IMG/VR virus record: IMGVR_UViG_3300023184_000083
Location: 1-64,000 of that record
DNA from: a virus
DNA length: 64,000 nt
Reading direction: 5' to 3' (one strand)
Both the position numbers and the translations under genes were made by a program. The notes under the pieces are model-generated. The model did not search any database. It had not been told where the DNA came from and saw nothing but the letters and a program-made list of their open reading frames with translations. This document shows positions 21,087 through 43,308 of this stretch, one piece after another; the stretch's first letter is position 1; every line of letters begins with the position of its first letter.

Positions 21087-21123
21087 CATTCCTTTCCACC
21101 ACCGTCGCTGCTTACGATAAATT

Positions 21124-21654
21124 TTACGCCGACGCCGGCGATTCAAAATCCTCCAGCGGTAGTAGGAACGTATCTGTTTCCCACAAAATTCCAACAGCCG
21201 CGTAACCGATGACGTCCATAAAGTTGTCAATCATGGATTCGTTCCAGGGGTTCTTGAGATTTGATGTCAAGTTCTCCAGGCGTGCAATCTTGTCGTGCAT
21301 TCGGACGACGAGGCCGGTAGTCCCGAATCTCGCGATGTTCTCTGGACCATAGTCTGACTGCTTACGAATCAGTGTCTTGAGTAGCAGGTCGTCTTCCTGG
21401 AGGTAGTTTTCAAATTGGCAATCGGATTGCGTATGCCCCGCGTGCATCCCCAGGGCCCCCAGTTCAATCCAACATTTTTCACGATTTTCTTTAGACATGG
21501 CCGCCGGCCCTTGAGGCTGCATGATTATGTCAATAAATTTATCTAAACATTCTCGCACGTCGTAGAGTTTTACTTCTTCAGCCATCTCTGCCGCGCGCCA
21601 ATAAATCTTCTGCACCGCAAAGCGCGCTGCCTCGTTCCAAGTTTTCATAGCCAT
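21124..21654 (-). CDS. DUF1599-like nucleotide-modification-associated domain protein
   Basis: RKQSDYG...GLVVRMHDKIARL...ESM.DN..D..GYA. Confidence 0.75.
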   Translation of the reverse strand: MAMKTWNEAARFAVQKIYWRAAEMAEEVKLYDVRECLDKFIDIIMQPQGPAAMSKENREKCWIELGALGMHAGHTQSDCQFENYLQEDDLLLKTLIRKQSDYGPENIARFGTTGLVVRMHDKIARLENLTSNLKNPWNESMIDNFMDVIGYAAVGILWETDTFLLPLEDFESPASA

Positions 21655-22073
21655 TTCTCCCAGTTAATCTTCGGTAGAGGGTTGCCCTCCAACATTTCCA
21701 CAACAGTTTCCAGCATCCTGCCTAGAATCTTTTGCCAGATGTAATCTCTGTAGTCTTTTTCGTAGTTGTTTTCTAATTTTTCCATGATGGCTGTTACCAG
21801 AGAATCTGGGAACGCTGCGATTATTTGTCCTTTTTCAGTTCCTGGGAAAAGGTTGGGGCAAACCGTCATGTCCAACGCGCTGTCTTTATAATGCATTCCC
21901 TGGATGACGACATCTGGTCCGGCACCTACGAAGAGTAAGGAACCCATTTCGTCAGGAGTTATTTCTCTGATGGCCTTAGACGTGGCAGGGTATTTTTTTG
22001 AGAATTCGCGCAGCGCCTCAAGGGCCTGTTCCGCTGTTTCATATTCAGAAATTTCGTAGGGTTCGTCTGTCAT
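21645..22073 (-). CDS. Hypothetical protein
   Basis: 142-aa ORF in the leftward gene run. Confidence 0.65.
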   Translation of the reverse strand: MTDEPYEISEYETAEQALEALREFSKKYPATSKAIREITPDEMGSLLFVGAGPDVVIQGMHYKDSALDMTVCPNLFPGTEKGQIIAAFPDSLVTAIMEKLENNYEKDYRDYIWQKILGRMLETVVEMLEGNPLPKINWEKWL

Positions 22074-22194
22074 GATTGCTTTCCGCCACCGTAGCGGCTT
22101 GGGGAGTGTTTTGTCAAGTGCTGAAGAAAAAGATTTTTTAAAAAATCCTATTTCCTTCGCGCTCGTTGTATTTTGTTGTAATAAAGTTCACTCC

Positions 22195-22566
22195 ATGGAT
22201 AACACTACACGTTTTGAACTTTATATCCGAGCCTTGGAACAATTCGCCGGACGTGAGGGTCATACCAGAGTCCCGGCCGTTCACGTTGAGAACGTTGACG
22301 GCACTGATGTGCATGTCGGGGCTTGGGTGGGTTACACTAGACAGCGTCGCAAGAAGGGATTCCTTCCCGCGGAACGAATCCAAAAACTTGAAAATTTGCG
22401 TGAATGGACGTGGGGCCCTCTGAAGCCAGGGCCGGCGACCAATAATAATAGAAATTCTGAGATTCTTGGGATGCGCAGCCAGGGGATGACGCTTCGTCAA
22501 ATTGCAGATTCGTTTGACTTGAGCCGTCAGCGCATTCACCAGATTGTGAAGAAAACTAATGCCTGA
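22195..22566 (+). CDS. Helicase-associated (HA) domain fused to a sigma70 region-4-like HTH
   Basis: F..REGH..VP...G.WV...R...L...RI..L, then G.TLRQIA..F.LSRQRIHQI. Confidence 0.75.
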   Translation: MDNTTRFELYIRALEQFAGREGHTRVPAVHVENVDGTDVHVGAWVGYTRQRRKKGFLPAERIQKLENLREWTWGPLKPGPATNNNRNSEILGMRSQGMTLRQIADSFDLSRQRIHQIVKKTNA

Positions 22567-22816
22567 CTGGGGACCTCCCGATTGGGATGAAGACTTCGGC
22601 GATGTGGATGATTTAGATTTTACTGCTGTACGCACGGGTTTGTATTTCTTTTTAATTGGAACGTTCTTCCAGGCGGCCGGCGCTTTTGCAATTTTTAAAA
22701 TTTTGCATAATGCAGATGTTATATCTGGTGCTCCGGGATGGCGGGCTTGCTACGTAGCGGTCTTGTCACTGAATATTTTGCGACTTTTTGACCGTGTCTT
22801 CTGGCGTCGTCGCTGA
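22559..22816 (+). CDS. Small membrane protein
   Basis: Two hydrophobic segments. Confidence 0.55.
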   Translation: MPDWGPPDWDEDFGDVDDLDFTAVRTGLYFFLIGTFFQAAGAFAIFKILHNADVISGAPGWRACYVAVLSLNILRLFDRVFWRRR

Positions 22817-23025: not shown

Positions 23026-23183
23026 AAGTCTTCTCCTTTAGTAAGTGGTTTAAGTTTATCGCCGGCAATTAGTTTTGCCAACCTCTTCCGCCACCGTCGC
23101 ACGTTGTAAACACTTACCACGTAGCGCAGCGGCGCTGTTGTTTTTTTCATTTTTTTTGATGACCCCTGGAGGTCTGGGGGAGA

Positions 23184-23283: not shown

Positions 23284-24777
23284 TTAGCGCACCTCATCGT
23301 CGGCTAGTGAAACACCTTGCTTATCTTGCCAAGTGCGCTTAAACATATGTCCCCACTGGCGACGAGCAGACTGTCCACGCTGGAGAGCCTTCAACTGAAC
23401 TAGTGCTTCTTCAACATGAGGAAGAACGATGATGCGGTTTTTCTTGCAGTAGTTGATGCATTGCATCGCCAGCATTTCAGAGAACCCTTGGTTAGGTCCG
23501 CAGACGCCACCATCGGTCACCCACACCACTGGAGCGTTAGAGCGTTGCCGATGCTTCACTGCCCATTCAAGTGCAGGGAAGTCAACGGAGTTGCCACCAC
23601 CCACTGCTGGGAGTTCGTCAACCATTTTGCCTTTATCAGCGACTATCCACATGTTCGTACCACCAGCCGAGTAATCCATGTCGGCGTAAATTGCGACAGT
23701 TGCACCGGGGGAGGCTTCAACGATTTGACGAATTTGGTCATGAGTAAATGACATTGAACCTGAACCGTCAATAACAACAACGCCACCGAGACCACGAGAC
23801 ACCTTGTCAAAGATGCGCTTGTCAGGGTCGGTGAGCATGCGATGTAAACGACGAGGAGAGCGACCAACATTAGAAGCAACACGCTTCTTACCGATGTTCC
23901 CACGAGTCTGTTTTGGCATTGGCAACTTTTCAATTACTAGTTCAGCCCAATAAGGGACGTTGCTATGCATTGAATCGGGGGTGATGTTCTTAAAGCGTTC
24001 AGACTCTTCTGCCTCTGTCTTTGGTGACACGCCTTTGTTGGAGTGTTCACGCTTAGAAGATTTATCTTCACCCTTTGTTGCGAGTGATGATTCTTCCGAT
24101 GAAGATTCTTGTTCTTCTTGTTCGTCAGGTGCAGGCATTCCTGCAAGACGGTCTACCCATTCAGCAATTTTTTCTGTATAGACAAAGCCTGATGGAGCAA
24201 GTTTAATTTGAGTGTGAACGCTAGTTGAAGCGAGACGACCAGTACGGTATGCCTTTTCCATTTCCTTTACTGCTCGCTTAGAGATATCAGCAAGTACTTT
24301 GCCCCACAAACGATTATGACGACGAACGCCATTAAGGTATGCCTTGTTAGACGCAGTGCCAGCAGTGGTGATTGCCATATGAACAGCAGTCTGCCAGTTG
24401 TTTTGTGCAGTGATGCGTTCTCCGTCAGCAGTTTCTCCACCGTCCGTAAGATGTTCCATTACTGGAAAGCCAGCCTTACCACACAGAAAGTTGACACGAA
24501 GTTCTTCTACAACAGTGAGCGCTTGGATGGAAGCGATTCCACGCTTCTGCCATTGCTCCCACTCTCCAGCAGGAGAAACTTTTGCATGCATCATTTCGTG
24601 CGCACGAACACAGCGTTCCATTTCGTTGTTCGCAGTCGGTACACGCATTGCACGACCGACGATTGAAGTCGCTGGAATACCACGGCGTGGCTCACACGAT
24701 TCAACGAGCCACTGTCCGTGTTCCGTGTCCTTGCGAGAAAGCCATTCAGGCTCCGCAATGATTTGGATATCAGTCAT
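23284..24777 (-). CDS. vWA-domain protein with N-terminal HExxH (CobT-like partner of the AAA+ ATPase)
   Basis: HEMMH, MIDAS DGSGS, VTDG. Confidence 0.8.
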   Translation of the reverse strand: MTDIQIIAEPEWLSRKDTEHGQWLVESCEPRRGIPATSIVGRAMRVPTANNEMERCVRAHEMMHAKVSPAGEWEQWQKRGIASIQALTVVEELRVNFLCGKAGFPVMEHLTDGGETADGERITAQNNWQTAVHMAITTAGTASNKAYLNGVRRHNRLWGKVLADISKRAVKEMEKAYRTGRLASTSVHTQIKLAPSGFVYTEKIAEWVDRLAGMPAPDEQEEQESSSEESSLATKGEDKSSKREHSNKGVSPKTEAEESERFKNITPDSMHSNVPYWAELVIEKLPMPKQTRGNIGKKRVASNVGRSPRRLHRMLTDPDKRIFDKVSRGLGGVVVIDGSGSMSFTHDQIRQIVEASPGATVAIYADMDYSAGGTNMWIVADKGKMVDELPAVGGGNSVDFPALEWAVKHRQRSNAPVVWVTDGGVCGPNQGFSEMLAMQCINYCKKNRIIVLPHVEEALVQLKALQRGQSARRQWGHMFKRTWQDKQGVSLADDEVR

Positions 24778-25502
24778 TACGACACTCCGTTGATTGCGAT
24801 TGCGTCAAGGATTGATTCTGCACGGTCACGAAAGACGATTTGAGCAGCACGTTCTTTACCGAGCGTCTTGCGCATTTGGTCAAACGCCATGAAGGCACGA
24901 AGCGACAAGCGACGAGCGCCAGCGTCAGCCATTTTCACAGCGTAGTCACGAAGGTCAGGAGACAAACGAGCGAGAGCGTTCGGGTGAGGCTGATTAATGC
25001 GAACACGAATTGGGAAACGGTCAGTCAGCGCAGTTGGCAACTCTTCCATGTTTTCCACATTAGTCGTCATAACAACAGAGAAGCCTTGGCGAGGACGATG
25101 CATACGACCAGTCTCAGGGTTTTCCCATGATGCTGATTCAGGAGAGTCCATCATTGCTAAGAGCGTTGACGACACATCGCCCGACGCCTTGTCAATTTCG
25201 TCAGCGACGAGACGACCACCAATGATGCCGTTGCCTTCCCAAGCCTTTAAAGCGGCTCCAGCGACCCAAGAGAATTTACCTTCTCCGTCAGGCATGAAAG
25301 CGCCAGTGACGTCCATGTTGGTCATATCTTCTGTGCAGACCATGCGAAACGCACCGCCTTGTGTATCTCCAGTAGTGAGACCAGCGAATGTCTTGCCAGT
25401 TCCTGGAGGACCGAACAGGATGACACGGTCAATGCCAGCGTCCATGCAGTCTTGTACTTCTTGCCAACAGTCGGGCAATGGGGTTGATGTTGAGTTTTCC
25501 AC
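24777..25502 (-). CDS. MoxR/CbbQ-type AAA+ ATPase
   Basis: GPPGTGKT, DEIDKA, TTN, ALTDRF. Confidence 0.9.
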   Translation of the reverse strand: MENSTSTPLPDCWQEVQDCMDAGIDRVILFGPPGTGKTFAGLTTGDTQGGAFRMVCTEDMTNMDVTGAFMPDGEGKFSWVAGAALKAWEGNGIIGGRLVADEIDKASGDVSSTLLAMMDSPESASWENPETGRMHRPRQGFSVVMTTNVENMEELPTALTDRFPIRVRINQPHPNALARLSPDLRDYAVKMADAGARRLSLRAFMAFDQMRKTLGKERAAQIVFRDRAESILDAIAINGVS

Positions 25503-25583
25503 GGTAGTAATCCCTTTCGGATGTGGTTGTTTATTACATGTACCAAGTTATCCGTTATTAAGAACAACGACAACCTTGGTTAG

Positions 25584-26081
25584 TTATTTTTTTTCTGCTT
25601 TTCTATCAGCCTTCTCGTCACGAATTTCCCACAAGCCTTTTTTAACTTTGCGGAATGTCTGTGACTCGGAAACAAACTTAAGTGTCGTCTGATAAGAGAA
25701 GCCAGCAATTTCTGTCAGTTGTTCTGTAGTGAACTGTTCAAACAAGTGGTCTTTAGTCCACTCCAAGAAGGCGTCGTACTTATCTGCACGTTTCGGAATC
25801 GGGGTTATGACTACGCCATCTTCAAGGGTCTCGTCACAAAACTGAGGTACCAGTTCTTCAATGATGTCTGTAGGTATCCCATACGACCCAAGGAAGCGAG
25901 AAGCCTTGCCACGACCGTCCCATACCTGTAAACAATAGAGGGCACGAACACGACTAGATATGGAGAACGTGACAGTGCGGGGCACGGAGAACACGTCTCC
26001 GTACTCTTGTTTTGCTTCGTCCCACAAAGACTTATGTGTCTCTAGTATCTCTGTATCTGTAATCATTTTCTTTAATGCCAT
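25584..26081 (-). CDS. Hypothetical protein with a possible C-terminal HTH
   Basis: Directly preceded by motif A. Confidence 0.75.
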   Translation of the reverse strand: MALKKMITDTEILETHKSLWDEAKQEYGDVFSVPRTVTFSISSRVRALYCLQVWDGRGKASRFLGSYGIPTDIIEELVPQFCDETLEDGVVITPIPKRADKYDAFLEWTKDHLFEQFTTEQLTEIAGFSYQTTLKFVSESQTFRKVKKGLWEIRDEKADRKAEKK

Positions 26082-26261
26082 ACCTTTAACCTATCCGTTA
26101 TTAACCATAATGACAACCCGCAGTATTAAATATTCGCATATTTTTTTACACTCTGGCAGCAAGTGAGGCATCATTCAACCCTTTATTAGGGCCGGCTGCA
26201 ACCTGAGCCCCGAGATAATGTTAGAATTTTAAGACAATCTTTCACCAGAACGGGACTCGTC

Positions 26262-26516
26262 ATGAAAAAGAAAAGCCAACTTCACGCACCAGTAGAAGCA
26301 ATCTCATATCTCTTGGAGCCTTCTCCGATTGTTGAAGGAGTTCAAATGGGAGCCCCGGCGGCACCGGCGGCAGAAGAGCCAAAGAAGAAGCCAAAGAAGG
26401 TTGAAGAACCAGTAGCCGAAGCAGTGGTAGAGCCAGTGGTTGAAGCAGCAGCAGAAGTTGTTGCAGAGCCAGTCGCAGAAGTAGTAGAAGCAGCAGCAGA
26501 ACCCGCTGCTGAATAA
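26262..26516 (+). CDS. Glu/Pro/Ala/Val-rich low-complexity protein
   Basis: EPVAE repeats. Followed by a terminator. Confidence 0.55.
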   Translation: MKKKSQLHAPVEAISYLLEPSPIVEGVQMGAPAAPAAEEPKKKPKKVEEPVAEAVVEPVVEAAAEVVAEPVAEVVEAAAEPAAE

Positions 26517-26524
26517 ATAAACGT

Positions 26525-26596
26525 AAAAAGGCAGGGTCTTCCGCCACCGTCGCCGCTTTCAATGAGCAGCAGACGGGGCCAAGGGCCCTGCTTTTT
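26525..26596. terminator. Bidirectional terminator hairpin with a motif B copy inside
   Basis: AAAAAGGCAGGGTCTT...AAGGGCCCTGCTTTTT between convergent genes. Confidence 0.65.
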
Positions 26597-26599
26597 GTT

Positions 26600-26860
26600 T
26601 TAGTAAGTTACGTCGCGCTCGTCAGCGCATTTTAAACAACATGCGTATTTGACCGGTACATCTTGAGAGTCAATTGCATATTCCCAGATGGGCTCATCGT
26701 CTACAAACTCGTCTACGCACCAAGCGCAGTATCCGGAGTCCCGCCCCCAGACGATTTGAATCGGGGACGCCTCAGCACAGGAGGGACACTGTTCATCTTC
26801 GTTAACCCATCCAGTCTTCTTGCAAGTGAAGCAATCTTCCAGTGCGTTCATCTCAGGCAT
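26600..26860 (-). CDS. Cys-rich hypothetical protein
   Basis: Four CxxC-type pairs. Confidence 0.6.
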   Translation of the reverse strand: MPEMNALEDCFTCKKTGWVNEDEQCPSCAEASPIQIVWGRDSGYCAWCVDEFVDDEPIWEYAIDSQDVPVKYACCLKCADERDVTY

Positions 26861-27131
26861 CGGCTTCCTCTGTGAATTCAACGACGATTTCGTCATGCAT
26901 CCCAGCGAGAGCGTTACCGTCAATGAACATGTCTTGGTCATTAGTGATTTCAAAGAAACCTTTGGTCCAGTAGCCGTTGTCGTTTAGGAAGTCGTACTTG
27001 TCGTTCCAAGTTAGGTCTACCCAGTTTTCAGGGAGCACCGATGTGTCGGGGACCGAGAAGTAATCCCATTTCAGGGGCATCTCGCCAATCATCTTGGGAT
27101 AGCGAAGTTCTGTGCAGGTGCGGTAGTTCAT
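26853..27131 (-). CDS. Hypothetical protein
   Basis: Motif A abuts the ATG. Confidence 0.75.
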   Translation of the reverse strand: MNYRTCTELRYPKMIGEMPLKWDYFSVPDTSVLPENWVDLTWNDKYDFLNDNGYWTKGFFEITNDQDMFIDGNALAGMHDEIVVEFTEEADA

Positions 27132-27140
27132 ACATTCAAC

Positions 27141-27383
27141 CTAACCGTTATTAGGGTCAATGACAACCTCTGAGTGGTCAATGATTGCATCAGCGAGCCA
27201 GTTGCAGATGTCACGGTCAGAGCCTTCCCATTCTTCAAACTCTTTTACGACGCGAGCCCAGCCTTCGTTGGTGAGTTCAAGTTCGTCGTTCCAGAATACT
27301 TCTGGTTTTTCCCAGAACAGAACCATCAGTTCGTCGTCTGGGTTCATACCCTCAACGAGGTGGCGTAGTTGTGAGACTTTCAT
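27141..27383 (-). CDS. Hypothetical protein
   Basis: C-terminus EVVIDPNNG is encoded by a motif A copy. Confidence 0.65.
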   Translation of the reverse strand: MKVSQLRHLVEGMNPDDELMVLFWEKPEVFWNDELELTNEGWARVVKEFEEWEGSDRDICNWLADAIIDHSEVVIDPNNG

Positions 27384-27577
27384 TCAGCCTGCTCCCACGC
27401 CATGTAGTCGCCGTCCATGTCACGACAGATGCCAGTGACCCAGAAAGGTTTAGGGTGTGGAGCCTCAGGGTCTTCCCCGATTGCTTCACGAACCTTAATG
27501 AGTGCTTTAGTCATGGCTTCACCATCTGTGAGGGCGTCTACATCAACGCCAACTTGTACTTGTACACGGTAAGTCAT
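27380..27577 (-). CDS. Hypothetical protein
   Basis: Overlapping stop/start with neighbours. Confidence 0.6.
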   Translation of the reverse strand: MTYRVQVQVGVDVDALTDGEAMTKALIKVREAIGEDPEAPHPKPFWVTGICRDMDGDYMAWEQAE

Positions 27578-27834
27578 TACTGCTCCATAAATTCTAGTGA
27601 TTCAACCAAGTCAATAAACCATTCCTTGTTTACGGAATAGACGTCACGAGACTCCTCAATAGCCTTTAGAAGACCTTTCGCTTCATCATCAGTGAAGTAG
27701 TAGAAAGTTTCTAGGTCTGATGGAGTGTCAAACTCCTCAGGTTGAAACGAGATGAAAACATCGTTGTAGCCGTCAGGTGAGTCTGTCCAAGTAACGGCAC
27801 ACTCAACCCCTTTATATTTATCTGAAATACTCAT
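27577..27834 (-). CDS. Hypothetical protein
   Basis: Motif A abuts the ATG. Confidence 0.75.
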   Translation of the reverse strand: MSISDKYKGVECAVTWTDSPDGYNDVFISFQPEEFDTPSDLETFYYFTDDEAKGLLKAIEESRDVYSVNKEWFIDLVESLEFMEQ

Positions 27835-27843
27835 ACCTTCAAG

Positions 27844-28305
27844 TTATCCCTTATTACCCTTAATGACAACCTCAGTGAAGTAATAAAAAAGATTGCTTGT
27901 GAAGATGGTGCGATATCCGTTCCATGCGTCGTCAGTCCCGATGCATAGTTCTCCGATTGTCTTCAACTCTTCGTCGGTGGCTTCGGTAGTAACCCACTTG
28001 AGCCAACCCATCAGACGTTCTTCTGTCGTGTCGTACTCAAGTTCTAGAAGAACCTCAGCCTCGTCGCGCAGAGCCCCGGGAGAATATGACACAGATGTAA
28101 AGCGTGTTACTTCTCCGTACAGAGTGTCTTCCATGATTTTGAGAACGCTCTTGCCTGTGCGAACTGCCATCTGAGATATTTCAGAGTCGCTCGCAACATC
28201 TAAAAAATGTGCGTCGTTTTCATCTAGTTCAGATAAATCTACGACATAGCAGTAATCCAGCGGGACTACCGTCCCAGACTGGGAGTCAATAATAACTTTC
28301 GTCAT
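27844..28305 (-). CDS. Hypothetical protein
   Basis: ATGA overlap with the upstream gene. C-terminus EVVIKGNKG is encoded by motif A. Confidence 0.65.
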   Translation of the reverse strand: MTKVIIDSQSGTVVPLDYCYVVDLSELDENDAHFLDVASDSEISQMAVRTGKSVLKIMEDTLYGEVTRFTSVSYSPGALRDEAEVLLELEYDTTEERLMGWLKWVTTEATDEELKTIGELCIGTDDAWNGYRTIFTSNLFYYFTEVVIKGNKG

Positions 28306-28919
28306 TTCGCCATCTCCTCTGCCCAAAACTTTAGAAGCAGTGCTTCCACCTTGTCTTGCTCTTGTTCGTTCCAGTTTTCGTGCTCTGCTTCTTGCTCATC
28401 GTAGTCAAATGGGTTTTCACACGGTTCGTACATCGCCTCAAAGACGATGGAGCCGTTACGAAAGACATGGTATCCAGCAAAGAAGCCAGCCTCTTCATCG
28501 TAAGAGAACTGAAAGGACAGTTCAGGAAACAACTCTGAGATTTTTAGCCATGCCTTATCGGCTGGTCCCCATGCAGTAGTGAAGTTTATGAGCGCAGTGC
28601 CATCGGCACGGTCAAGAAGTTCAGTGTCGCAGTCGCCCCACTTGGTGCCCCAAGTGTCGTACTCCCACTCGTACCAGTCCGAGTAACCGAACTTAGCGAT
28701 GTTCTCTTCCTTTTGTTTTAGCCATGTCTCGTGCTCAGGGTTATCTGAAGACATTGACCCTGAAAGGATTTTGAGTTCCTCAGGGCAAGGCAAAAGAGAC
28801 GGGATGATGTTTAGTTTTTCATTACCGTTTTCGTCTTTTACAGTAGAGGCAGTTAGGAACCTTTGTAGTTCCTGCTCGTCTCCAGTGATTGACGCTGATG
28901 TATGAACCCAGTTGGGCAT
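28302..28919 (-). CDS. DUF1281/YubB ferredoxin-like domain protein
   Basis: MPNW...WY.W...WGTKW...F.TAW.P...FP.L.F. Confidence 0.8.
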   Translation of the reverse strand: MPNWVHTSASITGDEQELQRFLTASTVKDENGNEKLNIIPSLLPCPEELKILSGSMSSDNPEHETWLKQKEENIAKFGYSDWYEWEYDTWGTKWGDCDTELLDRADGTALINFTTAWGPADKAWLKISELFPELSFQFSYDEEAGFFAGYHVFRNGSIVFEAMYEPCENPFDYDEQEAEHENWNEQEQDKVEALLLKFWAEEMAK

Positions 28920-28994
28920 GATTACCTTCTTTCGGTGATAGTAAATCCGATAAGTAAAACTCTATCCGTTATTAGGGATAGTGACAACCTTACT

Positions 28995-29315: not shown

Positions 29316-29411
29316 GGTGAATAACTTTCTTTGTAGGGGGTTTGTTTTCAGCGTAGCGGTTATTATCCATAATCACAACGCCAAACTTGGTCACACTCAG
29401 AGCGACGGGGC

Positions 29412-29669: not shown

Positions 29670-29673
29670 GTTG

Positions 29674-30141: not shown

Positions 30142-30413
30142 AGTGGGTGTACTCCTTTGTTAGTAGTGATAGAAACTCTATCCGTTATTAGCAATAGACA
30201 CAACCTTTGTTTTGTATTTCCTTTCCGCCACCGTCACTGCTTGAGAAACACCATACACCTCTTGCGTTTTGTGATTTCACAAATGGGTGTGTCATGGTTA
30301 TTTGAACCTTGCAAATAGGGGTAAAAGGGTCTAAAAATAATCTTTGGGGGCGAGTTGTCATTGTTCCTAATAACGGATAACTTGAAGGTATCGCAAGTGT
30401 TAGGAGAAACACA

Positions 30414-30803: not shown

Positions 30804-30815
30804 GGAAGGAACCCA

Positions 30816-32533: not shown

Positions 32534-32633
32534 GTCTTCCGCCACCGTCGCCACTTCAGAAACACTTTTGACCCCCGCCCCCCGGGGCTAGTAAACACGT
32601 TCAGAAAAACGTTCTCTGTACCCAGTCCGAATG

Positions 32634-34244: not shown

Positions 34245-34310
34245 GCAAACCAAGAACAAAACGATAGTGTGGGGTGGGGAAACTCACCCCATTACTACGG
34301 AGAGGAATAA

Positions 34311-35333: not shown

Positions 35334-35368
35334 AGTGTAACTATCAACTACTACCGAGAGGAAATCTC

Positions 35369-35788: not shown

Positions 35789-35948
35789 GTGTTCGCTACG
35801 AGGGGTGGGGATACCTGCCCCTCACAGCACATTGGTGGCCCCGTGCATTTGCTATCCGCCACCGTCGCTACTTGAGAAAAGCGCACACCCAAGCCCCCGG
35901 GGCTCACGCGTCGCATTTTGACTTTGTTATGTGTTTATGTCTGTCTCT

Positions 35949-35981
35949 TTTTCCACAACCTGTGGATAATTCTGTGGATAA
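35949..35981. promoter_or_regulatory. Cluster of three DnaA boxes
   Basis: TTTTCCACA 35949-57. TGTGGATAA 35961-69 and 35973-81. Confidence 0.75.
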
Positions 35982-36034
35982 GTTTTCTTGTTGGCGAGGT
36001 TGGCATTATGCCTAATAACGGATAACTTGAAGGT

Positions 36035-36304
36035 ATGAAGTTCACAGACATCACCACCCCATCAGGCATAGTAACCATTGACCAGACAGACGGTTACATG
36101 ACCTCTACTCCAAACTCCGAGGCTGTCACTCGTTGGTCTTTCTTTCCTAAATATGATTATCTCCATGTGACTTGGGGGCAGACAAAGTACATCTATTCGG
36201 GTGTGCCGTTCTCTGTTATCGCTCGTCTCTTGGCAACAGATAGCGTTGGTCGCTTCCTTAACACGGAAGTTAAGCCGAACTACGAAGTAACAAAGGTGGA
36301 CTAA
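36035..36304 (+). CDS. KTSC-domain protein
   Basis: L.V......Y.Y.GVP......L...DS.G.F.N..VK..Y. Confidence 0.75.
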   Translation: MKFTDITTPSGIVTIDQTDGYMTSTPNSEAVTRWSFFPKYDYLHVTWGQTKYIYSGVPFSVIARLLATDSVGRFLNTEVKPNYEVTKVD

Positions 36305-36386
36305 TGAAAACACTGCTCGCAATTATCCTTAGCCTGCCTCTCGGGGCTGTAGTCTTCATGGCTGTCGTTCTTGCAGGGGGTGACAA

Positions 36387-36767
36387 ATGACGCCTGCCGA
36401 GTGTCGCTCTCGTTTGTTTGGCTATGTCCTAGCGAACCATAGGTACGGAGACTTCCACCCATCTCGTGTGTTTGTAGAGTTAGCCCTCATTGCTGGAGAG
36501 AACGCCTTTGACGACTCTGACCTCATCATGGAGTTCGTTGACGGGGCTCTCGCCGGCTATAACCCCAACACTGTTGTCGTAGACCCACCCTCTCTCATGG
36601 CTGGCTTTGACGCACTTCACCAAGACGCTTGGCTTGCTGGTCTAGCATGGGGCGAGAAGAAGGACTCCGAACAACACGAGTGGGATAAGTTGCCCACCTA
36701 CGATGAGTTCCGTGAATGGTTAAACTCTCCGTTTGACGAGGAAGAAGAAGAACTTGAAATGCTGTGA
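36387..36767 (+). CDS. Hypothetical protein
   Basis: 126-aa ORF with a G-rich SD. Confidence 0.6.
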   Translation: MTPAECRSRLFGYVLANHRYGDFHPSRVFVELALIAGENAFDDSDLIMEFVDGALAGYNPNTVVVDPPSLMAGFDALHQDAWLAGLAWGEKKDSEQHEWDKLPTYDEFREWLNSPFDEEEEELEML

Positions 36768-37170
36768 TAACTGCGGGGTTGAAGCCCCGGACTCCCAACA
36801 ACAGGGAGGCTATATTGACTACGGCTGGTCGTTGAACTGGCTTGCACTCGGTCACTACGGTGGTTTTACGGACTGTGTTCCCGAACGAGACTACGAAGTA
36901 GATAGTCCTCGTTACCTCGCTCATCTCTGTCACGACTGCTGTATTAAACTCCTGAACGTGCTGCCGGGACTCGCAAAGTTGATTTTCCCACAAGAAGGTG
37001 GGGGTCACCCGAACATCAACGAACACGATGCAGACGATGGAACCTTGACTCCACCCTGCTGTCAGTGGGCGTGGACGTGGAAACGTAGCCCCGCTGGCGC
37101 ACCGAACGCTGGTCAGTACGAGACATACTTTGCTACGGCTGATGGTGGCTGGAAAAAAATTAACGACTAA
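36733..37170 (+). CDS. Cys-rich hypothetical protein (start uncertain)
   Basis: CDNC...GHYGGFTD...LCHDC. Confidence 0.65.
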   Translation: MTRKKKNLKCCDNCGVEAPDSQQQGGYIDYGWSLNWLALGHYGGFTDCVPERDYEVDSPRYLAHLCHDCCIKLLNVLPGLAKLIFPQEGGGHPNINEHDADDGTLTPPCCQWAWTWKRSPAGAPNAGQYETYFATADGGWKKIND

Positions 37171-37208
37171 GGGTTGTCATTACCCTTAATAACGGATAGT
37201 CTGAAGGT

Positions 37209-37430
37209 ATGAGTGAATACGAAATACCAGAAATGCCCGACTACTGCCATTGTAGTAGCAACGGAGAGTGCGCCTACTGCCTCTCCCAAGACGAACTAGA
37301 ACTAAAGGTTTCCTTCCATGTTCAGAACGCAGGAAAAGAAGTGCTGTTCACAGGGTCGCTTGCGCAGTGTAGAGCCTTCATGGAGAAGAACGAAATTGCC
37401 CGTAGAGAGTTGCTGTGGGTTAAACAGTAA
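37209..37430 (+). CDS. Small Cys-containing protein
   Basis: Motif A abuts the ATG. Terminator follows. Confidence 0.7.
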   Translation: MSEYEIPEMPDYCHCSSNGECAYCLSQDELELKVSFHVQNAGKEVLFTGSLAQCRAFMEKNEIARRELLWVKQ

Positions 37431-37443
37431 CGTCACAAGAATT

Positions 37444-37470
37444 ACCCCTGCCTTCGGGTGGGGGTTTTTT
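37444..37470 (+). terminator. Intrinsic terminator
   Basis: ACCCCTGCC-TTCG-GGTGGGGGT followed by a T-run. Confidence 0.8.
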
Positions 37471-37481
37471 ATTGCCCGAAC

Positions 37482-37745
37482 TCAGTCCGCCGCGGGACTG
37501 CCGGAAGAACGACGTATCTTCATTACTTGACTGTAGACAGACATCATGGCATCGTTGAGTTCTTTGTTGTTGTCAGAAGCAACGAACTTCATGTCGGCTC
37601 TTGTCCAACACGTGACGTTCCAACGCCCCGCTTGCCGGAGTATTTCAAAGTCAAGGTTCATTAGGTCAAACCACTTCGTAAACTGGGCGATGTCGTTCCC
37701 TGATGTGGCGAGTTTCTTTTCTTCTGTTCCCCAAGATGATGGCAT
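37482..37745 (-). CDS. Hypothetical protein
   Basis: ORF convergent on the terminator. Confidence 0.5.
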   Translation of the reverse strand: MPSSWGTEEKKLATSGNDIAQFTKWFDLMNLDFEILRQAGRWNVTCWTRADMKFVASDNNKELNDAMMSVYSQVMKIRRSSGSPAAD

Positions 37746-37840
37746 GCTTTTACTGTAGTGCATCGGGACCCCTGGCCGGCCGCACAAACAAACCAAACAT
37801 GCAGGTTGTGATAAGCCCTAATAAGGGATAGAGTGTAAGT

Positions 37841-38048
37841 ATCGGTAAAGGACACCGAGTGGAAACCAAAGACTGAGTAATCTCCTAAGGCAACTCGGCG
37901 ATTGGGAGTGCCACAAATATGCAGAGAAGCCCTACCTGCTGGATTGTTTCACGACTAATAACCTCGTTCTTCTCTCAGAGCGTCAATGGTGAATCACAGA
38001 GAACTAGAACCCCATCACAGTCTGGCGATTGTGTTGGGGTTCTTTTTT
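37841..38048 (+). ncRNA. Candidate structured ncRNA of about 205 nt
   Basis: Has its own motif A promoter (37803-35) and terminator (38006-48). No convincing ORF inside. Several complementary segments. Confidence 0.6.
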
Positions 38049-38260
38049 GTCCCCTACCGGCCGCAGCCCCGTCGTTGTCTTCTTGGGTCTAGTTTTTCAT
38101 AGCCTTTCCGCCACCGTCACTGCTTCAGGAAACAACAACACTCCGCTGCGGCGGGGCTAGGGGCCCCAGACTGAGAGTCAGGATTTGGGTGGCAGGAAAG
38201 AAGATTTATTTCTTTCATTTTGACGTTGTAATAACGACTAATAATGGATAGATTGAAGAT

Positions 38261-38575
38261 ATGAACATTTCACTTGACAACGAAAACCTAAAGATAGATG
38301 GTCGTGTGGTTGCAAAAATAACCTCAAAGGCTTCATTTATCCTTCTTCGTGACACACTCCTAAAAACACTCCCACCAACCGAGGCTGTTTATTTGGCTCT
38401 CGCAATGATGGGAGAGTCTCGCACGACAGACATTGCTGACTTTACTGGACAGGATAAGTCAAACTGCCTTCGTCGCTTGGCTGAGTTGGAAGAAGCGGGG
38501 CGCATTGTGCTCACAGATAACGCTTACAACAACGGACTTCGTGGTCGCCCAACCCGTATGTGGGCAGTCGCCTAG
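38261..38575 (+). CDS. Winged-HTH DNA-binding protein
   Basis: T.DIA..TG..KSN..R.L..LE..G.I...GRP...W. Confidence 0.75.
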   Translation: MNISLDNENLKIDGRVVAKITSKASFILLRDTLLKTLPPTEAVYLALAMMGESRTTDIADFTGQDKSNCLRRLAELEEAGRIVLTDNAYNNGLRGRPTRMWAVA

Positions 38576-38732
38576 AGTCGTTCTCCCTCTTGTGTTGAGG
38601 TATCATCTTGGTACAACGACACGAGAGGGTAGTTATGACTAAGAAAGACGACGACGGGGCTGACAAGAAGCAAGAAAAGCCCAAGAAGCAGGAAAGACCA
38701 CGCTTCGTCCAACGAGTTTGGGGAAGTAATAA

Positions 38733-38999
38733 ATGCTGTGGGAGACCACCCGTATGATAGTCCCCATCTTTGTTCTGAACCGCATCCCCGAGACAACCTC
38801 TTTGTGGGTGTGTCAGAACTGCGAAGACTACTGGTGGGAGTCCCGAGATTGCGAAGTATGCAACGCAACGGGTGAACTGGTTGCTTCTCCAAAACAAACT
38901 GTCGGTTGCAACATGGGCGATATGTTCGGGGCTGATTTCTTGTTCCACAAGCAAATGAACAGACACATCAAGAAAAACATACTGTGGGCACCTTGGTAA
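38733..38999 (+). CDS. Cys-rich hypothetical protein
   Basis: CQNC...CEVC. Confidence 0.55.
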   Translation: MLWETTRMIVPIFVLNRIPETTSLWVCQNCEDYWWESRDCEVCNATGELVASPKQTVGCNMGDMFGADFLFHKQMNRHIKKNILWAPW

Positions 39000-39055
39000 A
39001 AAATCTTTTTTTGTCAGAGGTTGTCATTGTTCTTTATTAAGGATAGATTGAAGAT

Positions 39056-39340
39056 ATGAAAATACTTACAGACGACGATATGGAAGTTGTAGCCAACGCT
39101 AACGATGGCTTCGGTTCCTTATTCATCACACTCGCTGGTCTAATGGATAGACTCGGCATTAAGACACTAAAGTCAGCCCTCACCTATTTGCCTGAAGAAA
39201 TTGCAGGCGATGTAGAGATGGATAAAGCACTAAAGTGGGTTCGCTGGGCTATGGGTCAAAAAGGCGATTGCCCAACTCCTGAAATTGGAACGGCTTGTCA
39301 TCACTTTCTTGCTGTAGGATTGCTTGAGGAAACAGAATAA
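39056..39340 (+). CDS. Hypothetical protein
   Basis: Motif A abuts the ATG. Confidence 0.7.
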   Translation: MKILTDDDMEVVANANDGFGSLFITLAGLMDRLGIKTLKSALTYLPEEIAGDVEMDKALKWVRWAMGQKGDCPTPEIGTACHHFLAVGLLEETE

Positions 39341-39639
39341 TGGTCGGCAAAAACGCACCCAACTTTGACCCACAGCCAATGATGGATAGGCTCACACAGC
39401 CGATGTCATTTGACGAGTGGATTGTCATCGGCATGAACAGCGGTTGGTGTAGCCCACCGTTGTGTGAAACCCACGACGGGGTCCCGCAAACTAAAGCCGA
39501 AGAAGAGCAGTGGGAAGAAGGTGGCGACCCATGTATTCATGTGATTCGCCTGTTTGACTCACCCGAAGATAAGGCTGAGGCAGAAGAGGGTCACTCACCC
39601 TCGCAGTGGCGCAACCATTGGAAGCAGTCAGATGTCTGA
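39340..39639 (+). CDS. Conserved hypothetical phage protein
   Basis: F.EW...G...GWC.P..C.THDG.P....E......DPC.H..RL. Confidence 0.7.
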   Translation: MVGKNAPNFDPQPMMDRLTQPMSFDEWIVIGMNSGWCSPPLCETHDGVPQTKAEEEQWEEGGDPCIHVIRLFDSPEDKAEAEEGHSPSQWRNHWKQSDV

Positions 39640-39820
39640 GCACTCATACTTTCGTGCAGACTTAGAGAACGACATGAAGTTCCTCGTCGGTGCTGGGCTC
39701 ATAGAAGTCGCCGGCATTGACGAAGACGGGGACTGGCTGTACCAGCCGACTGCTAAAGGAAAAGCAATGTCACTAGAAATGATGCAACAAATGATTGAAG
39801 CCTCTGGGGAAGAAGAATGA
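39632..39820 (+). CDS. Hypothetical protein
   Basis: GLIEV.GI..DG.WLY..T.KG. Confidence 0.6.
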   Translation: MSEHSYFRADLENDMKFLVGAGLIEVAGIDEDGDWLYQPTAKGKAMSLEMMQQMIEASGEEE

Positions 39821-40050
39821 CCGTGGCCCCGTTGTTCAAAGAATTCGCATCAGCCGAGGAGTTTGAGGAAGCGGTTAAGTCTGCTTACGGACACCCATCA
39901 TGTACATTGCGTTACGGACAGTTGTACTTCAACATGCTTACAAAGTGTCGCCCTGAAATCGCTAAAGCGTTACAAGGCGGGGCACTAGACCCGTTCTACA
40001 AAGAGGGCGTATCAGACGCAACACGCAGTGTCGTAGAGTCTCGTTGGTAA
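39817..40050 (+). CDS. Hypothetical protein
   Basis: RYGQ..FN.L...RP..A.......DPFY. Confidence 0.65.
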   Translation: MTVAPLFKEFASAEEFEEAVKSAYGHPSCTLRYGQLYFNMLTKCRPEIAKALQGGALDPFYKEGVSDATRSVVESRW

Positions 40051-40087
40051 GGTTGCCATTGTTGCTAATAAGGGTTACACTGAAGTC

Positions 40088-40264
40088 ATGAACATACCAG
40101 CACCATTTAAAGGTACAGCAGAACAAGCGAAAGCAAACTTTGCAACTCATCGTTTTAGTAACGACGACGACTTTAGATGTGGTCAGTGCGACTGCAAACC
40201 ATGGCACATAACAGCCAGTTATCCGTGCGGTGAGGAACCACCTCGCATTTTCGTAAACGAATAA
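40088..40264 (+). CDS. Small Cys/His protein, 58 aa (not in the ORF track)
   Basis: Motif A abuts the ATG. RCGQCDCKPWH..ASYPCG.EPPR. Terminator at 40284-40315. Confidence 0.7.
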   Translation: MNIPAPFKGTAEQAKANFATHRFSNDDDFRCGQCDCKPWHITASYPCGEEPPRIFVNE

Positions 40265-40511
40265 ACCATCTCCACTCAGAGCGAAAGCCGGGACTCTTCG
40301 GGGTCCTGGCTTTTTCGCATTATGGGTTTGCTTTCCGCCACCGTCACTACTTGAGTAAACATTTGTTCCGGCTGCTGCCGGTCCCGCGCGCCATCTTCAG
40401 ATAATGAGTCAAACGGGGGGCAAAAAAGGCAAATAAAAAGTTTCTATTTAAGGTTGTGTTTACCCTTAATAACGGTTAGAGTGTTCTTATGAGTGGAGAG
40501 GGGGTGAAAAA

Positions 40512-40652
40512 ATGATGACAACCACGACTTGCTGGTTTTGCGGCGTACTGTGCCCAATCCAAGGTTCTGCGGAACTGCCCGAGGGCGGGGCCGAGCCTGC
40601 GGGTACTTGCCCTGCCTGCGAAGCGGAGCAGGCGCTAGAAGCACTACTCTAG
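40512..40652 (+). CDS. Small zinc-binding protein, 46 aa (not in the ORF track)
   Basis: CWFC...CPAC. Downstream of motif A. Confidence 0.55.
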   Translation: MMTTTTCWFCGVLCPIQGSAELPEGGAEPAGTCPACEAEQALEALL

Positions 40653-40706
40653 CCTTCCAACCCCCCAAAGCCCTCCGACAGGACAGGCTAGGGGTACGGG
40701 CGGGGC

Positions 40707-40937
40707 TCAGTTCTCCCAGGGGGTGCCATTCCAGTTGCCTAGCCGCTTAGCCATTGAGCCGAGCGTGTTCGCTCCGCCTTCCCATTTGATTTCCTTAGCC
40801 CCGGTTTCCATCAACTTAAGTTGACGCCTGATGTCTTCAAGCATTTGTTCAAGGAGACGCAAGCGCCCCTCCAGTCGCTTGATGCGCTGTTCGTGCAGTT
40901 CGTCAGGAAGTTCAGGGTTGTCGTTCTGTTCGCTCAT
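40707..40937 (-). CDS. Small coiled-coil protein
   Basis: SD GAGG and a heptad pattern. Confidence 0.55.
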   Translation of the reverse strand: MSEQNDNPELPDELHEQRIKRLEGRLRLLEQMLEDIRRQLKLMETGAKEIKWEGGANTLGSMAKRLGNWNGTPWEN

Positions 40938-41053
40938 TTCCTCAGACTACACGCAGCGGGACTCAACGTCGGGGGACACGCCCCCATAAAACCCCTCAAA
41001 ACTTTCTTGCTCATAATGTTGTAATTGTTACTAATAAAGGATAGAGTGTTCTT

Positions 41054-41182
41054 ATGAGTGGTGAGGAGGTGAATATGGGAATTGATTGCGAAGAAACTTG
41101 CAAGTGTGGTATTACTTACCAAACGTGGCTAGTTTACGACGTTGAGTGCATTGACGATAAAGTGCACGTGTGGGAAGACTAA
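41054..41182 (+). CDS. Small Cys-rich protein (alternative start 41075)
   Basis: Motif A upstream. Terminator at 41202-41234. Confidence 0.5.
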   Translation: MSGEEVNMGIDCEETCKCGITYQTWLVYDVECIDDKVHVWED

Positions 41183-41286
41183 ATAGTCACCCACAACAAA
41201 ATAACCCGTCTGTGCCCTCCGCAGACGGGTTTTTGTTTGCCCTGATTCACGTCGTATCTGGGGCCCCGCGATAGACTGAGAGCATC

Positions 41287-43203
41287 ATGATTCATCTCTA
41301 TCTGTCGGACGACCACCTTGTGTTTGACTTCCCGTATGACGCAGAGCAGGTTGCAGAGATAAAGCGCATCAAAGGGGCTAAATGGGACAAGGTTGCCCGA
41401 GTTTGGCGCTTGCCCATCACGGCGTTGGAGGAGAGTCGGGGCTTCGCCGGCCGCCACAACTTCGTCATCTCCTCAGAAGTCATGCTTTTTACGCTGCCCA
41501 AGCACAACAACTCCGAAACCAACGGCGTATATATCAAGGGCGATTGGGTATATCTTGCTTTTGACTACGACCCAGTACGTGTTCGTTCAGTAAAACAAAT
41601 TGCTGGCATCACTTGGCATGCGAAGACCAAGGCGTGGAGAGCCCCGATGGCGAGCATCTCCGAGGTAGTGGGTTGGGCAACCACCTTCAAGCAGCCTATT
41701 GAAAGCAATGTTACTGACATGCTCAACCAAATAGAGAGTTCTCTTACAGAACTAAAGGACGCATCACGAATGGTTGATGCTGAACTTGAAGTGGCGGGAC
41801 TACCGCTGCTGCCGTACCAGAGGGCTGGAGTTGCATACGCATCTAACGCACGGCGCACATTCATTGCCGATGAAATGGGATTGGGGAAAACTCTACAGGC
41901 GATTGCGACACTGGAGTATGTTTATGATTCCTACCCAGCAGTTGTCGTGTGTCCTGCAACGCTCGTTCTTAACTGGAAAGCCGAATACAACAGGTGGCTT
42001 CCTTCTCGCAAGGTCGCAGTAGTAACTGACCGCAAGGAATTTCCGACAGAATATGATGTAGTTGTTATAAGTTATTCTAACCTTAATCACTGGGAAAAGC
42101 AACTTCTAAATCACCAATCTTATGTTTTTGATGAAAGTCATTACTGCAAGACCCCAACAGCACAGCGAACGAAGTCAGCCGTGAAGATTGCACGGACAGC
42201 CCCGGCGGCGGGAATTGTCTTGTGTTTGACGGGGACACCAGTAACCAACCGACCAGCAGAATATGCAAGCCAACTTAGAATCATTGGTCAGTTAGACAAG
42301 TTCGGTGGGGAGTGGGGTTTCTACAGGAGATACTGCGCTGCGTTCAAAGACAAATGGGGACAATGGCATCTTGAGGGTCACTCTCATCTTGATGAACTCA
42401 ACGAACGACTGCGTTCTACTTGTTACATCAGGCGTACAAAAGAGCAGGTTCTTACTGATTTGCCACCCGTGATGCACGACCCCATCGTCGTTGACGGGAC
42501 TGCTGCCGGCCTACGTGAGTACAAAAAGGCAGAAGATGACATTGTTGAATACTTGGTACAGCGCGCTAAAGAGATTGCGTTGGAACTTGGTAAGTCTCCT
42601 AACTCGGCAGCGGTCGTAGCGAGAATCAAAGCCGAATCAAATCAACACCTCGTTCGTCTCTCAGTTTTGCGTCGCTTGTCAGCAAAAGCGAAGATGCCAG
42701 CAATTATTGACTGGGTAGAGTCCCGTGTGGCGGAGGGCCGCAAAGTCGTAATCGCCGCTCACCACAGAGATGTAGTTGATGAGTTAGCCAAGAAGTTCGG
42801 CAACTTGCGAATCCAAGGCGGCATGGACATTGAGGAGATTGAGAAGCAGAAGAACCTGTTCATGACTTTGCCGGCCGCAGAGGCCCCGTGCATCGTGCTG
42901 AGCATCCAAGCAGCCAAGACTGGTCACAACCTTCAGGTGGCTCAGGATGTGCTGTTCGTGGAACTCCCATGGACGCCTGCTGATGTAGACCAGACTTACA
43001 GTAGATGTCATAGATTGGGGCAGAAGTCGTCAGTCACGGCTACATACATGTTATGTGCTGGAACGATTGATGAAGAAATCTACTCGCTGATTGAACGTAA
43101 GCGGGGCGTAGTAAACCAAGCAGTTGATGGTGTTGCATACACAGAGTCAGATGCTGTGTCTGACTTGGTTATGAGTAGATTGTTTAAGGAAATTAACGAT
43201 TAA
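41287..43203 (+). CDS. SNF2-family helicase with two N-terminal HARP-like domains (annealing-helicase type)
   Basis: ADEMGLGKT, DESH, LTGTP, RCHRLGQ. Repeated F.YD......K.I.G..W....K.W. Confidence 0.9.
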   Translation: MIHLYLSDDHLVFDFPYDAEQVAEIKRIKGAKWDKVARVWRLPITALEESRGFAGRHNFVISSEVMLFTLPKHNNSETNGVYIKGDWVYLAFDYDPVRVRSVKQIAGITWHAKTKAWRAPMASISEVVGWATTFKQPIESNVTDMLNQIESSLTELKDASRMVDAELEVAGLPLLPYQRAGVAYASNARRTFIADEMGLGKTLQAIATLEYVYDSYPAVVVCPATLVLNWKAEYNRWLPSRKVAVVTDRKEFPTEYDVVVISYSNLNHWEKQLLNHQSYVFDESHYCKTPTAQRTKSAVKIARTAPAAGIVLCLTGTPVTNRPAEYASQLRIIGQLDKFGGEWGFYRRYCAAFKDKWGQWHLEGHSHLDELNERLRSTCYIRRTKEQVLTDLPPVMHDPIVVDGTAAGLREYKKAEDDIVEYLVQRAKEIALELGKSPNSAAVVARIKAESNQHLVRLSVLRRLSAKAKMPAIIDWVESRVAEGRKVVIAAHHRDVVDELAKKFGNLRIQGGMDIEEIEKQKNLFMTLPAAEAPCIVLSIQAAKTGHNLQVAQDVLFVELPWTPADVDQTYSRCHRLGQKSSVTATYMLCAGTIDEEIYSLIERKRGVVNQAVDGVAYTESDAVSDLVMSRLFKEIND

Positions 43204-43308
43204 GGAATTCCTTTCCGCCACCGTTGCCACTTCAGGAAAAACTATTCTGGGGTTCTCCTCCGGGGCTTTTGCTTTTAATATTTAATTTAATGCTTTTATA
43301 CCCTAAAG

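Follow-up and report, generated by a model that had tools for sequence, protein, structure and literature searches.

Repeated regulatory sites in phage genomes usually track transcription, and the few that track the genome (Chi, KOPS, Ter and nick sites) have each uncovered a DNA-tracking machine. What, then, is a repeated element that keeps to one strand while the genes around it change direction? We address this question for motif B, found in a stretch of viral DNA of 64,000 nucleotides (nt) that forms positions 1–64,000 of the 77,724-base-pair (bp) IMG/VR record IMGVR_UViG_3300023184_000083 (estimated completeness, 49%); this whole stretch is referred to here as the window. We find that B is a conserved, asymmetric, bipartite DNA motif of genome-fixed polarity, located at unit boundaries of a block of early genes.

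A gene map, built from conservation of open reading frames (ORFs) in a syntenic relative (G001; nucleotide identity about 72%, range 67–97%) and a purpose-built codon-usage caller, places leftward genes at 19.1–20.7, 21.1–22.1, 22.8–26.1 and 26.6–30.1 kilobases (kb) and rightward genes at 30.4–45.5 kb. Across this map, motif B (YTTCCGCCACCGTCRCYRCTT) occurs in ten copies with 0–3 mismatches, against a chance expectation of 0.01 matches in dinucleotide-preserving shuffles. All ten are on the + strand and lie where the initial annotation had placed them, and the whole record contains 10 forward and 0 reverse copies. The genes at 21–30 kb, described as mostly leftward, are so overall but not purely, being interrupted by rightward islands at 22195–22816 and 26262–26516. 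Likewise, the copies are mostly intergenic, as had been claimed for all of them, except for the one at 23085. The extension SAGRAA, said to follow B often, is present in all six copies at 30–43 kb. The copies, together with a decayed eleventh and one adjoining terminator, are as follows.

20596..20616, + strand: decayed eleventh copy of B, 5 mismatches, within the leftward gene 20315–20677; its ortholog is a 2-mismatch copy at 6662 in reverse-complemented G001.
21093..21113, + strand: B copy, CCACCACC variant, between two leftward genes; the same variant is retained at the orthologous site in G001 and in a further relative, G006.
22080..22100, + strand: B copy in a divergent gap, 6 nt from the ATG of the leftward gene 21645–22073 and 94 nt ahead of the start codon of the HA-sigma4 gene described below.
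23085..23105, + strand: B copy, 3 mismatches, in a small leftward ORF; a + strand hairpin and T-run lie downstream at 23121–23146.
26538..26558, + strand: B copy at a convergent junction, 22 nt past the rightward gene 26262–26516, within a long bidirectional hairpin.
30222..30242, + strand: B copy in a divergent gap, flanked by divergent promoters of motif A (below) at 30205 (−) and 30353 (+).
32536..32556, + strand: B copy after rightward genes, 3 nt past a rightward stop codon; A promoter 32676 is 140 nt downstream.
35853..35873, + strand: B copy after rightward genes; A promoter 35998 downstream.
38105..38125, + strand: B copy after rightward genes; A promoter 38224 downstream.
40286..40315, + strand: intrinsic-terminator-like hairpin and T-run, as read from the sequence, directly upstream of B 40332; kept in G001.
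40332..40352, + strand: B copy after rightward genes; A promoter 40452 downstream.
43212..43232, + strand: B copy after rightward genes, 9 nt past the stop codon of the SNF2 helicase gene; A promoter 43357 downstream.

One copy had been described as sitting inside a bidirectional terminator, and 26520–26612 does fold at −45.1 kcal/mol (z = −5.6) with B within the stem. The copy at 23085 is predicted to encode VRRWRKR in its leftward ORF, in the window and G001 alike. A full-text search with the B core string returned just unrelated cloning primers, and comparison of a B 16-mer with 185,579 species genomes gave, among the matches listed, scattered single occurrences and no CRISPR arrays or host feature; the host may be unsampled.

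The initial annotation proposed that the polarity of B is tied to genome direction, and relatives of the phage bear this out. In G001 there are 11 copies against 0, all on the syntenic strand and at orthologous places. Five near-complete relatives of 128–148 kb each carry 5–14 clustered copies on one strand, in one 20–25-kb block that makes up about 17% of the genome. When a position-weight matrix was run over seven genome blocks and 74 further SNF2 loci, 207 copies shared the strand of the SNF2 gene and 6 were on the opposite strand. The flanking genes of the B sites in this family scan are co-oriented in 114 instances, convergent in 30 and divergent in 9; both neighbours run against B at 26 sites, and 8 sites are within genes of the opposite orientation. 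G008 is the plainest example: its 12 copies keep to the SNF2 strand in a block where nearly all genes, with strong coding scores, run the other way. Together with motif A, these results show that the orientation of B is fixed to the genome backbone, that is, to the strand of the SNF2 helicase gene, and is independent of neighbouring genes.

Motif A (GGTTGTCATTnnnnCTAATAAcGGATAnn; about 40 bp) serves as an internal control. It is sigma-70-like, with the form TTGTCA-17 bp-TAnnnT and an ATG about 7 nt further on (leaderless), and in the window its 17-bp spacer contains a conserved CTAATAAcGGA. Nearly every small early gene has its own copy. The window contains 26: the rightward block has 18, all + strand, and the leftward blocks have 8, all − strand.

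30353, 31228, 31791, 32676 ... 43357, + strand: copies of motif A.
25575, 26118, 27168, 27871, 28989, 30205, 45741, 49727, − strand: copies of motif A.

The orientation of A flips with gene direction, whereas that of B does not. At six sites in the window B lies 119–145 nt upstream of an A promoter. The A spacer is lineage-dependent (TAATAGCCnATA in G001), and because it differs between lineages, its sequence suggests a co-evolving phage factor for A promoters.

Family-wide, the core of B spans 15 nt (GCTTTCCGCCACCGT) with about 1–2 bits per position. The full motif is bipartite with fixed spacing: the core, then (C/A)A, N4 and a second box, WTKAGRAA, for a total of about 29 bases. In the second box, position +6 is A or T only and position +7 is T in 74% of sites, after which comes the purine-rich AGRAA. 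The core is invariant over lineages whose SNF2 proteins are 62–84% identical. The inter-box stretch and the form of the second box are lineage-specific (CTTGAGAAAC in the window, GATTAGAAAC in G006, TTTCAGGAAG in L040 and CCTAGACGA in L058). Footprinting of orthologous spacers from the window, G001 and G006 left the B core and the A promoter as the sole conserved parts.

B is located at operon boundaries of the early-gene block. Of 97 co-oriented sites, 26 have a terminator-like hairpin with a T-run no more than 80 nt upstream; where B is antisense to its neighbours, the terminators on its right-hand side are on the minus strand and belong to the leftward gene there. A GC-rich segment follows B and then gives way to a mildly AT-rich stretch. 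No sigma-70 −35/−10 pair 16–18 bp apart is visible in the motif, and TANNNT occurs at +2/+3 in 20% of sites; judged by its sequence, B is not a host-type sigma-70 promoter. In 10 of the 45 antisense contexts a leftward start codon follows the reverse complement of B by 1–14 nt, and the T-variant of this reverse complement reads GGAGGAA. A general role as a ribosome-binding or start-associated sequence (SAS) element was rejected, as it would apply in those 10 contexts only. An integron attC-like or IS200/605-like element was likewise set aside: no recombinase was found, and the copies share B alone, not whole-element similarity. At 22080, a minus-strand TTGACA-18 bp-TACGGT (22074–22130) overlaps B and is conserved in G001 and G006. 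The TACGGT is the product of a C-to-A variant in this copy and would make a leftward sigma-70-like promoter for gene 21645–22073. As a general explanation this too was discarded, since TTGACA-17/18 bp-TACGGT is found only at 22080 and its orthologues.

Does B act as DNA or as RNA? The initial annotation had given six copies a downstream partner, CGG(G/C)GC, seen either as a helically phased half-site or as an RNA-pairing arm. The positions are correct (CGGGGC or CGGCGC at 26574, 32583, 35898, 38152 and 43261, and CGGCGC at 23130; 31 or 40–44 nt from the G of GCCACCG), and although the + strand has 36 copies of CGGGGC, mainly within genes, finding 6 of 10 B copies with one at such a distance is still well over chance. 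The phasing, however, does not stand, as CGGGGC and its reverse complement are both enriched after B at variable distance. The sequences CGGGGC, GCCCCG, AGYCCCG and CGGGRCT are all enriched 20–100 nt after B, and inverted repeats of the form AGYCCCG...CGGGRCT, with loops of 10–40 nt, include CGGGGC as an arm in either orientation. The same inverted repeats precede promoters in the L061 lineage, where they occur without B. Pairing fails as well: downstream complementarity to the core scores 5.79 over 185 sites, compared with 5.78 and 5.82 for upstream and reversed-core controls. Given both orientations, the occurrence in L061 and the lack of excess complementarity, CGGGGC belongs to an independent GC-rich hairpin element of the spacers, and is not a phased half-site or an arm for pairing.

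These data bear directly on the idea that B is an RNA-level element, forming the 5′ arm of a hairpin with downstream CGGGGC as a terminator, processing site or nut-like antiterminator. Minimum-free-energy folds do pair GCC-A-CCG with CGGGGC in 4 of the 10 window copies, T-run hairpins follow several B copies, and a conserved box followed by a lineage-specific hairpin resembles boxA/boxB. Yet most fold z-scores are unremarkable (9 of 10 between −2.5 and +1.3), an Rfam search of 19–46 kb gave nothing beyond two sub-threshold chance matches, and the fixed polarity of B among leftward genes is left unexplained, in addition to the complementarity and orientation results above. The RNA-level reading is thus largely refuted, and we give it very little credence.

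B is statistically coupled to boxes for the host initiator DnaA. Exact DnaA boxes (TGTGGATAA) number 9 in the window, compared with about 0.5 expected from its length.

20955, 35961/35973, 43322/43334, 58621/58634, 60435, 63476, + strand: DnaA boxes.
16519, − strand: DnaA box.
35961..35981, + strand: tandem pair of exact DnaA boxes with a 12-nt period, 108 and 120 nt after B 35853.
43322..43342, + strand: tandem pair of one exact and one 1-mismatch DnaA box, 110 and 122 nt after B 43212.

Tandem pairs in the window are spaced 12–13 nt apart and often stand shortly before A promoters. The 1.39 Mb of family sequence contains 93 exact + strand boxes, and 45 of them fall 75–175 nt after a B core, a zone estimated to cover about 1.5% of the sequence, which corresponds to roughly 30-fold enrichment. 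The boxes also share the strand bias of B (93 versus 26 across the family), and 32 of 169 unique B sites (19%) have them. In G008 about eight boxes lie just after one B, a cluster whose arrangement suggests that it may be an origin.

This coupling raises the possibility that B modules are replication elements, namely sites of oriented loading or priming, or origins switched on by transcription, that act together with host DnaA and set fork direction. Consistent with this idea, the boxes after B usually form 12-nt tandem pairs on the B strand, the GC-rich segment after B passes into a mildly AT-rich stretch, primase/helicase and single-stranded-DNA-binding protein (SSB) genes are near the B block, and the candidate reader described next carries a domain named 'helicase-associated'. 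The G008 cluster points the same way. However, with boxes at just 19% of B sites, with 10–14 origins in 22 kb being implausible, and with the boxes close ahead of A promoters, a position that would let DnaA act simply as a transcriptional regulator, we regard a replication function as doubtful.

A small DNA-binding protein of the phage probably docks at B, and the B cluster itself encodes a candidate.

22195..22566, + strand: candidate reader gene, 123 amino acids (aa), with a helicase-associated (HA) domain and a sigma-70 region-4-like helix-turn-helix; it heads the island 22195–22816, the sole rightward genes of the leftward dense cluster.

Pfam assigns the domains to PF03457 (HA; 4.9e-13) and PF04545 (Sigma70_r4; 26.3 bits, cut-off 24.1). 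A homologue lies inside the B cluster and on the B strand in G004, G005, G006, G007, G008, G010 and G011, and in G001 by ORF comparison, so that the association is found in nine of nine testable genomes (the window, G001 and seven relatives). In the window and G001, B precedes the gene by about 55–94 nt, and in G005, G006, G007 and G011 it precedes the matched part by 87–300 nt; no A promoter lies between B 22080 and the reader gene. In the recognition helix, LSRQRVHQI, the residues S, R, Q, R, H, Q and I are invariant in 41 homologues at 39–79% identity, which parallels the invariant CCACCGT of the B core. An AlphaFold (AF2) model (predicted local distance difference test score (pLDDT), 87.8) predicts two helical domains joined by a 17-residue linker, and a two-domain monomer of this kind would suit a two-box asymmetric site, which lends circumstantial support to the candidate. 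A fold search with the model gave no significant match; its weak top rows were helix-turn-helix DNA-binding domains of serine recombinases and LuxR-type regulators, and the bipartite DNA-binding domain of Tc3 appeared, also without significance, at rank 47. A tblastn search against deposited phages found zero matches. We infer that the 123-aa HA-sigma4 protein is the predicted reader of B. The initial annotation had set B apart from a simple operator; its orientation rule is indeed unlike that of stoperators, but B does look like an asymmetric protein site with a candidate reader.

What might such a site do? We favour directional transcription control by B, most likely as a factor-dependent rightward start site, with a probability of about 0.3. 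In support of this reading, B has an A/T step at fixed spacing followed by a purine run, a sigma-4-like factor is encoded alongside, its gene has no A promoter between it and B, and the T-run hairpins upstream of 26 of 97 co-oriented sites suit the start of a transcription unit. The layout in L045 also fits, as B core-AA-TAGGAT-TAGGAA-ATG mirrors the leaderless geometry of A promoters at a place that has no A promoter. In the proposed mechanism, the invariant helix of the reader would contact the invariant CCACCGT core and its other domain would contact the lineage-variable second box. Bound B would then act directionally on transcription, which is the weakest step. Ahead of their host-type A promoters, rightward operons would acquire an additional promoter with different timing, and leftward early genes would suffer convergent or antisense transcription or occupied 5′ ends. 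A single protein would thus switch a bidirectional early region of about 22 kb.

Several observations weigh against a start site. No sigma-70 region-2 protein was found when the phage was searched for one, and no T7-like RNA polymerase (PF00940) was detected in the window's record, which is 49% complete, or in five large relatives, in a search that also gave no match in the control genomes. The −10-like hexamer is weak and differs between lineages, with no consistent −10 element. A terminator-like hairpin lies 40–160 nt downstream of B in 37 of 97 co-oriented sites, which is odd for a promoter unless it attenuates and fits a location of B in 3′ untranslated regions. G007 and G008 contain dense antisense arrays of B, with copies in the gaps between leftward genes and next to clusters of leftward promoters. 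In G007, seven copies occur within 2.2 kb, mainly in short gaps between leftward genes, and would amount to seven antisense promoters; there, too, a GAAAC element abuts the core without a spacer. The link to the reader is also imperfect: in G004, G010 and G008 no B is directly upstream of the reader gene, in G012 a B cluster has no detected reader gene on a contig that ends inside the cluster, and the association of gene and motif may be plain synteny. Tentatively, B and the HA-sigma4 reader might together form a genome-polar, DnaA-coupled control system for one-way traffic of RNA polymerase or the replisome, a Ter-like or one-way-promoter switch that closes the leftward early genes and serves the rightward ones, with the single protein occupying about a dozen sites of identical orientation at operon boundaries.

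Another reading is a polar roadblock or insulator, in which a protein bound to B would stop RNA polymerase or the replisome from one side, like Tus-Ter or a stoperator of genome-fixed orientation, and so seal operon boundaries and silence transcription in one direction. B lies at such boundaries beside terminators on either side, the site is asymmetric and has a helix-turn-helix candidate protein, the G007 and G008 copies abut leftward promoter clusters, and the reverse complement of B overlaps leftward 5′ ends in the 10 of 45 antisense contexts noted above. Nevertheless, a barrier in one direction accounts for half of the copies, either version leaves many conserved sites with nothing to stop, and intrinsic terminators are already present at many B sites; we consider a roadblock unlikely. 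A site for a phage nickase, at which virion DNA would carry localized single-strand interruptions like those of T5, phiKMV-like phages and the Pseudomonas putida phage tf, would, by analogy, account for a one-strand, positionally conserved, bipartite motif, and nick sites are the sole documented phage feature with the same signature. No nickase candidate was identified, however. T5 nicks are dispensable, and the invariance of the B core at 62–84% SNF2 identity is a stronger constraint than would be expected of dispensable nicks. B is also confined to one block, whereas the nicks of tf and T5 have been mapped along the genome (PMC3517423). In contigs from four DNA runs over 24001–44000 a few low-coverage ends lie near B (32582, 32594 and 40330), but contigs cannot show nicks and these ends are not used as evidence. 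Nicking at B thus seems an outside chance.

The initial annotation had looked to Chi and KOPS, or to DNA entry, for a signal that guides or protects against a translocase or nuclease. The polarity of B is independent of genes, the motif is always upstream of and co-oriented with a gene for an SNF2 translocase, and its reverse complement is G-rich and contains GGTGG, which is also contained in Escherichia coli Chi. Chi and KOPS are 5–8 nt long and genome-wide, whereas B is a 15 + 8-bp motif limited to one 20–25-kb block of 128–148-kb genomes. The idea of a genome-wide signal therefore fell away, and a guide or entry signal is improbable.

Indications of the host come from the phage genome itself. 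A WhiB-like gene (50170–50529), an Rpf-type transglycosylase domain, leaderless-type promoters and the cultured relatives of the SNF2 helicase together point to an actinobacterial host, as predicted from sequence. For the SNF2 gene (41287–43203), IMG/VR contains at least 386 relatives, the longest of their contigs reaching 148 kb; its nearest cultured relatives, in Arthrobacter and Gordonia phages, are about 35% identical. Lake and freshwater metagenomes are the source of the sequencing runs that contain the window sequence, and for 30101–40100 no RNA run is listed among them. Comparison with 50,697 deposited phage genomes gave no near relative of the window, and megablast of the 20–44 kb region against deposited phages returned zero matches. 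The 'terminal repeats' of G004 and G008 are at non-homologous places relative to the B block and do not locate the physical genome ends.

Other features of the region concern exchange of genes. The genes 34915–35145, 38261–38575 and 41054–41182 are single early genes, each with its own A promoter, that occupy different B-delimited units in G001; their distribution points to cassette shuffling through recombination at repeated promoter and B sequences. Gene 21124–21654 (−; 176 aa), with a weak match to DUF1599 (nucleotide-modification-associated), is absent in G001 and represents an insertion adjoining B 21093. The leftward gene pair 29412–30141 (−) adjoins, on the left, the divergent region holding B 30222, and its two small proteins are 98% identical to those of G001, compared with 50–80% for its neighbours. 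Within ORF 53401–58365 (−), a 2.2-kb segment (53828–55993) has 97% DNA identity to G001, compared with 63% for the proteins overall, and looks like the result of recent recombination. This 1,654-aa ORF has no Pfam, PDB or Atlas relative. A DxDGD scan for a multisubunit-type polymerase yielded just an N-terminal motif, RFDPxAxDxDGDxxVQExxxF(E/Q), shared by three large proteins: this one and two outside the window (G000 70899–72641 (−) and 73029–76253 (−)). The motif may be a common virion or ejection-protein module. A full-length protein of the tryptophan-halogenase family (1490–3028, +; Pfam E = 1e-98) adjoins tail-fibre-like genes, and two tRNA genes are present, tRNA-Arg(TCT) at 61208–61281 (+) and tRNA-Ile(TAT) at 63560–63632 (−).

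B adds a long, sharply conserved, genome-polar site, with a candidate reader encoded alongside, in a very large family of uncultured freshwater actinobacteriophages with genomes of 128–148 kb. If B is a directional switch, it would add a new means by which phages schedule a bidirectional early region; as a nick site, it would carry localized nicking over to actinobacteriophages. Either reading comes down to a defined 29-bp site and a 123-aa protein, which can be synthesized and tested without phage culture.

Among known systems, promoters of the T7/SP6 type and the T4 MotA-box type resemble B in having a block of about 25–29 bp with an A/T-rich dinucleotide and a purine-rich, start-like run at its end, in about ten copies on one strand, with a phage sigma-region-4-like protein as a possible factor here. 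B differs in lacking a consistent −10 and in having many copies that run against local genes, and the search for a single-subunit polymerase gene was negative. The stoperators of L5 and other Cluster A phages are also many short asymmetric sites in intergenic gaps of an actinobacteriophage, some within operons, for which a small helix-turn-helix protein is presumed. Stoperators are oriented with transcription and are bound by a temperate phage's immunity repressor. B keeps one absolute orientation over opposed gene blocks (including the 26 sites between and 8 inside opposite genes, and the 12 in G008), and a search of the window's record and four large relatives detected no tyrosine integrase. 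The SAS of Cluster K phages recall the reverse complement of B just upstream of leftward start codons, but most copies of B are away from start codons and, in rightward blocks, on the wrong strand. Ter sites are about 23 bp long, about ten in number and mostly intergenic. Together with Chi and KOPS they share with B an asymmetry oriented by the genome and not by genes; Ter differs in forming two opposed groups, Chi and KOPS in their length and genome-wide spread, and we know of no coupling of any of the three to DnaA boxes or a sigma-4-like protein. The nick sites of T5, phiKMV-like and tf/LUZ24-like phages have an asymmetric one-strand consensus whatever the direction of transcription, in several copies at conserved positions (PMC3517423). 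In phage tf, which has convergent transcription, 14 nicks all fall in one top-strand consensus, with similar site positions in relatives; for phiKMV the consensus is a 19-mer in two parts (PMC3517423; bioRxiv 10.1101/619015). B is longer, almost always between genes and present in the early block only. Set beside these systems, B is a well-defined new variant in the rare class of genome-polar phage DNA signals.

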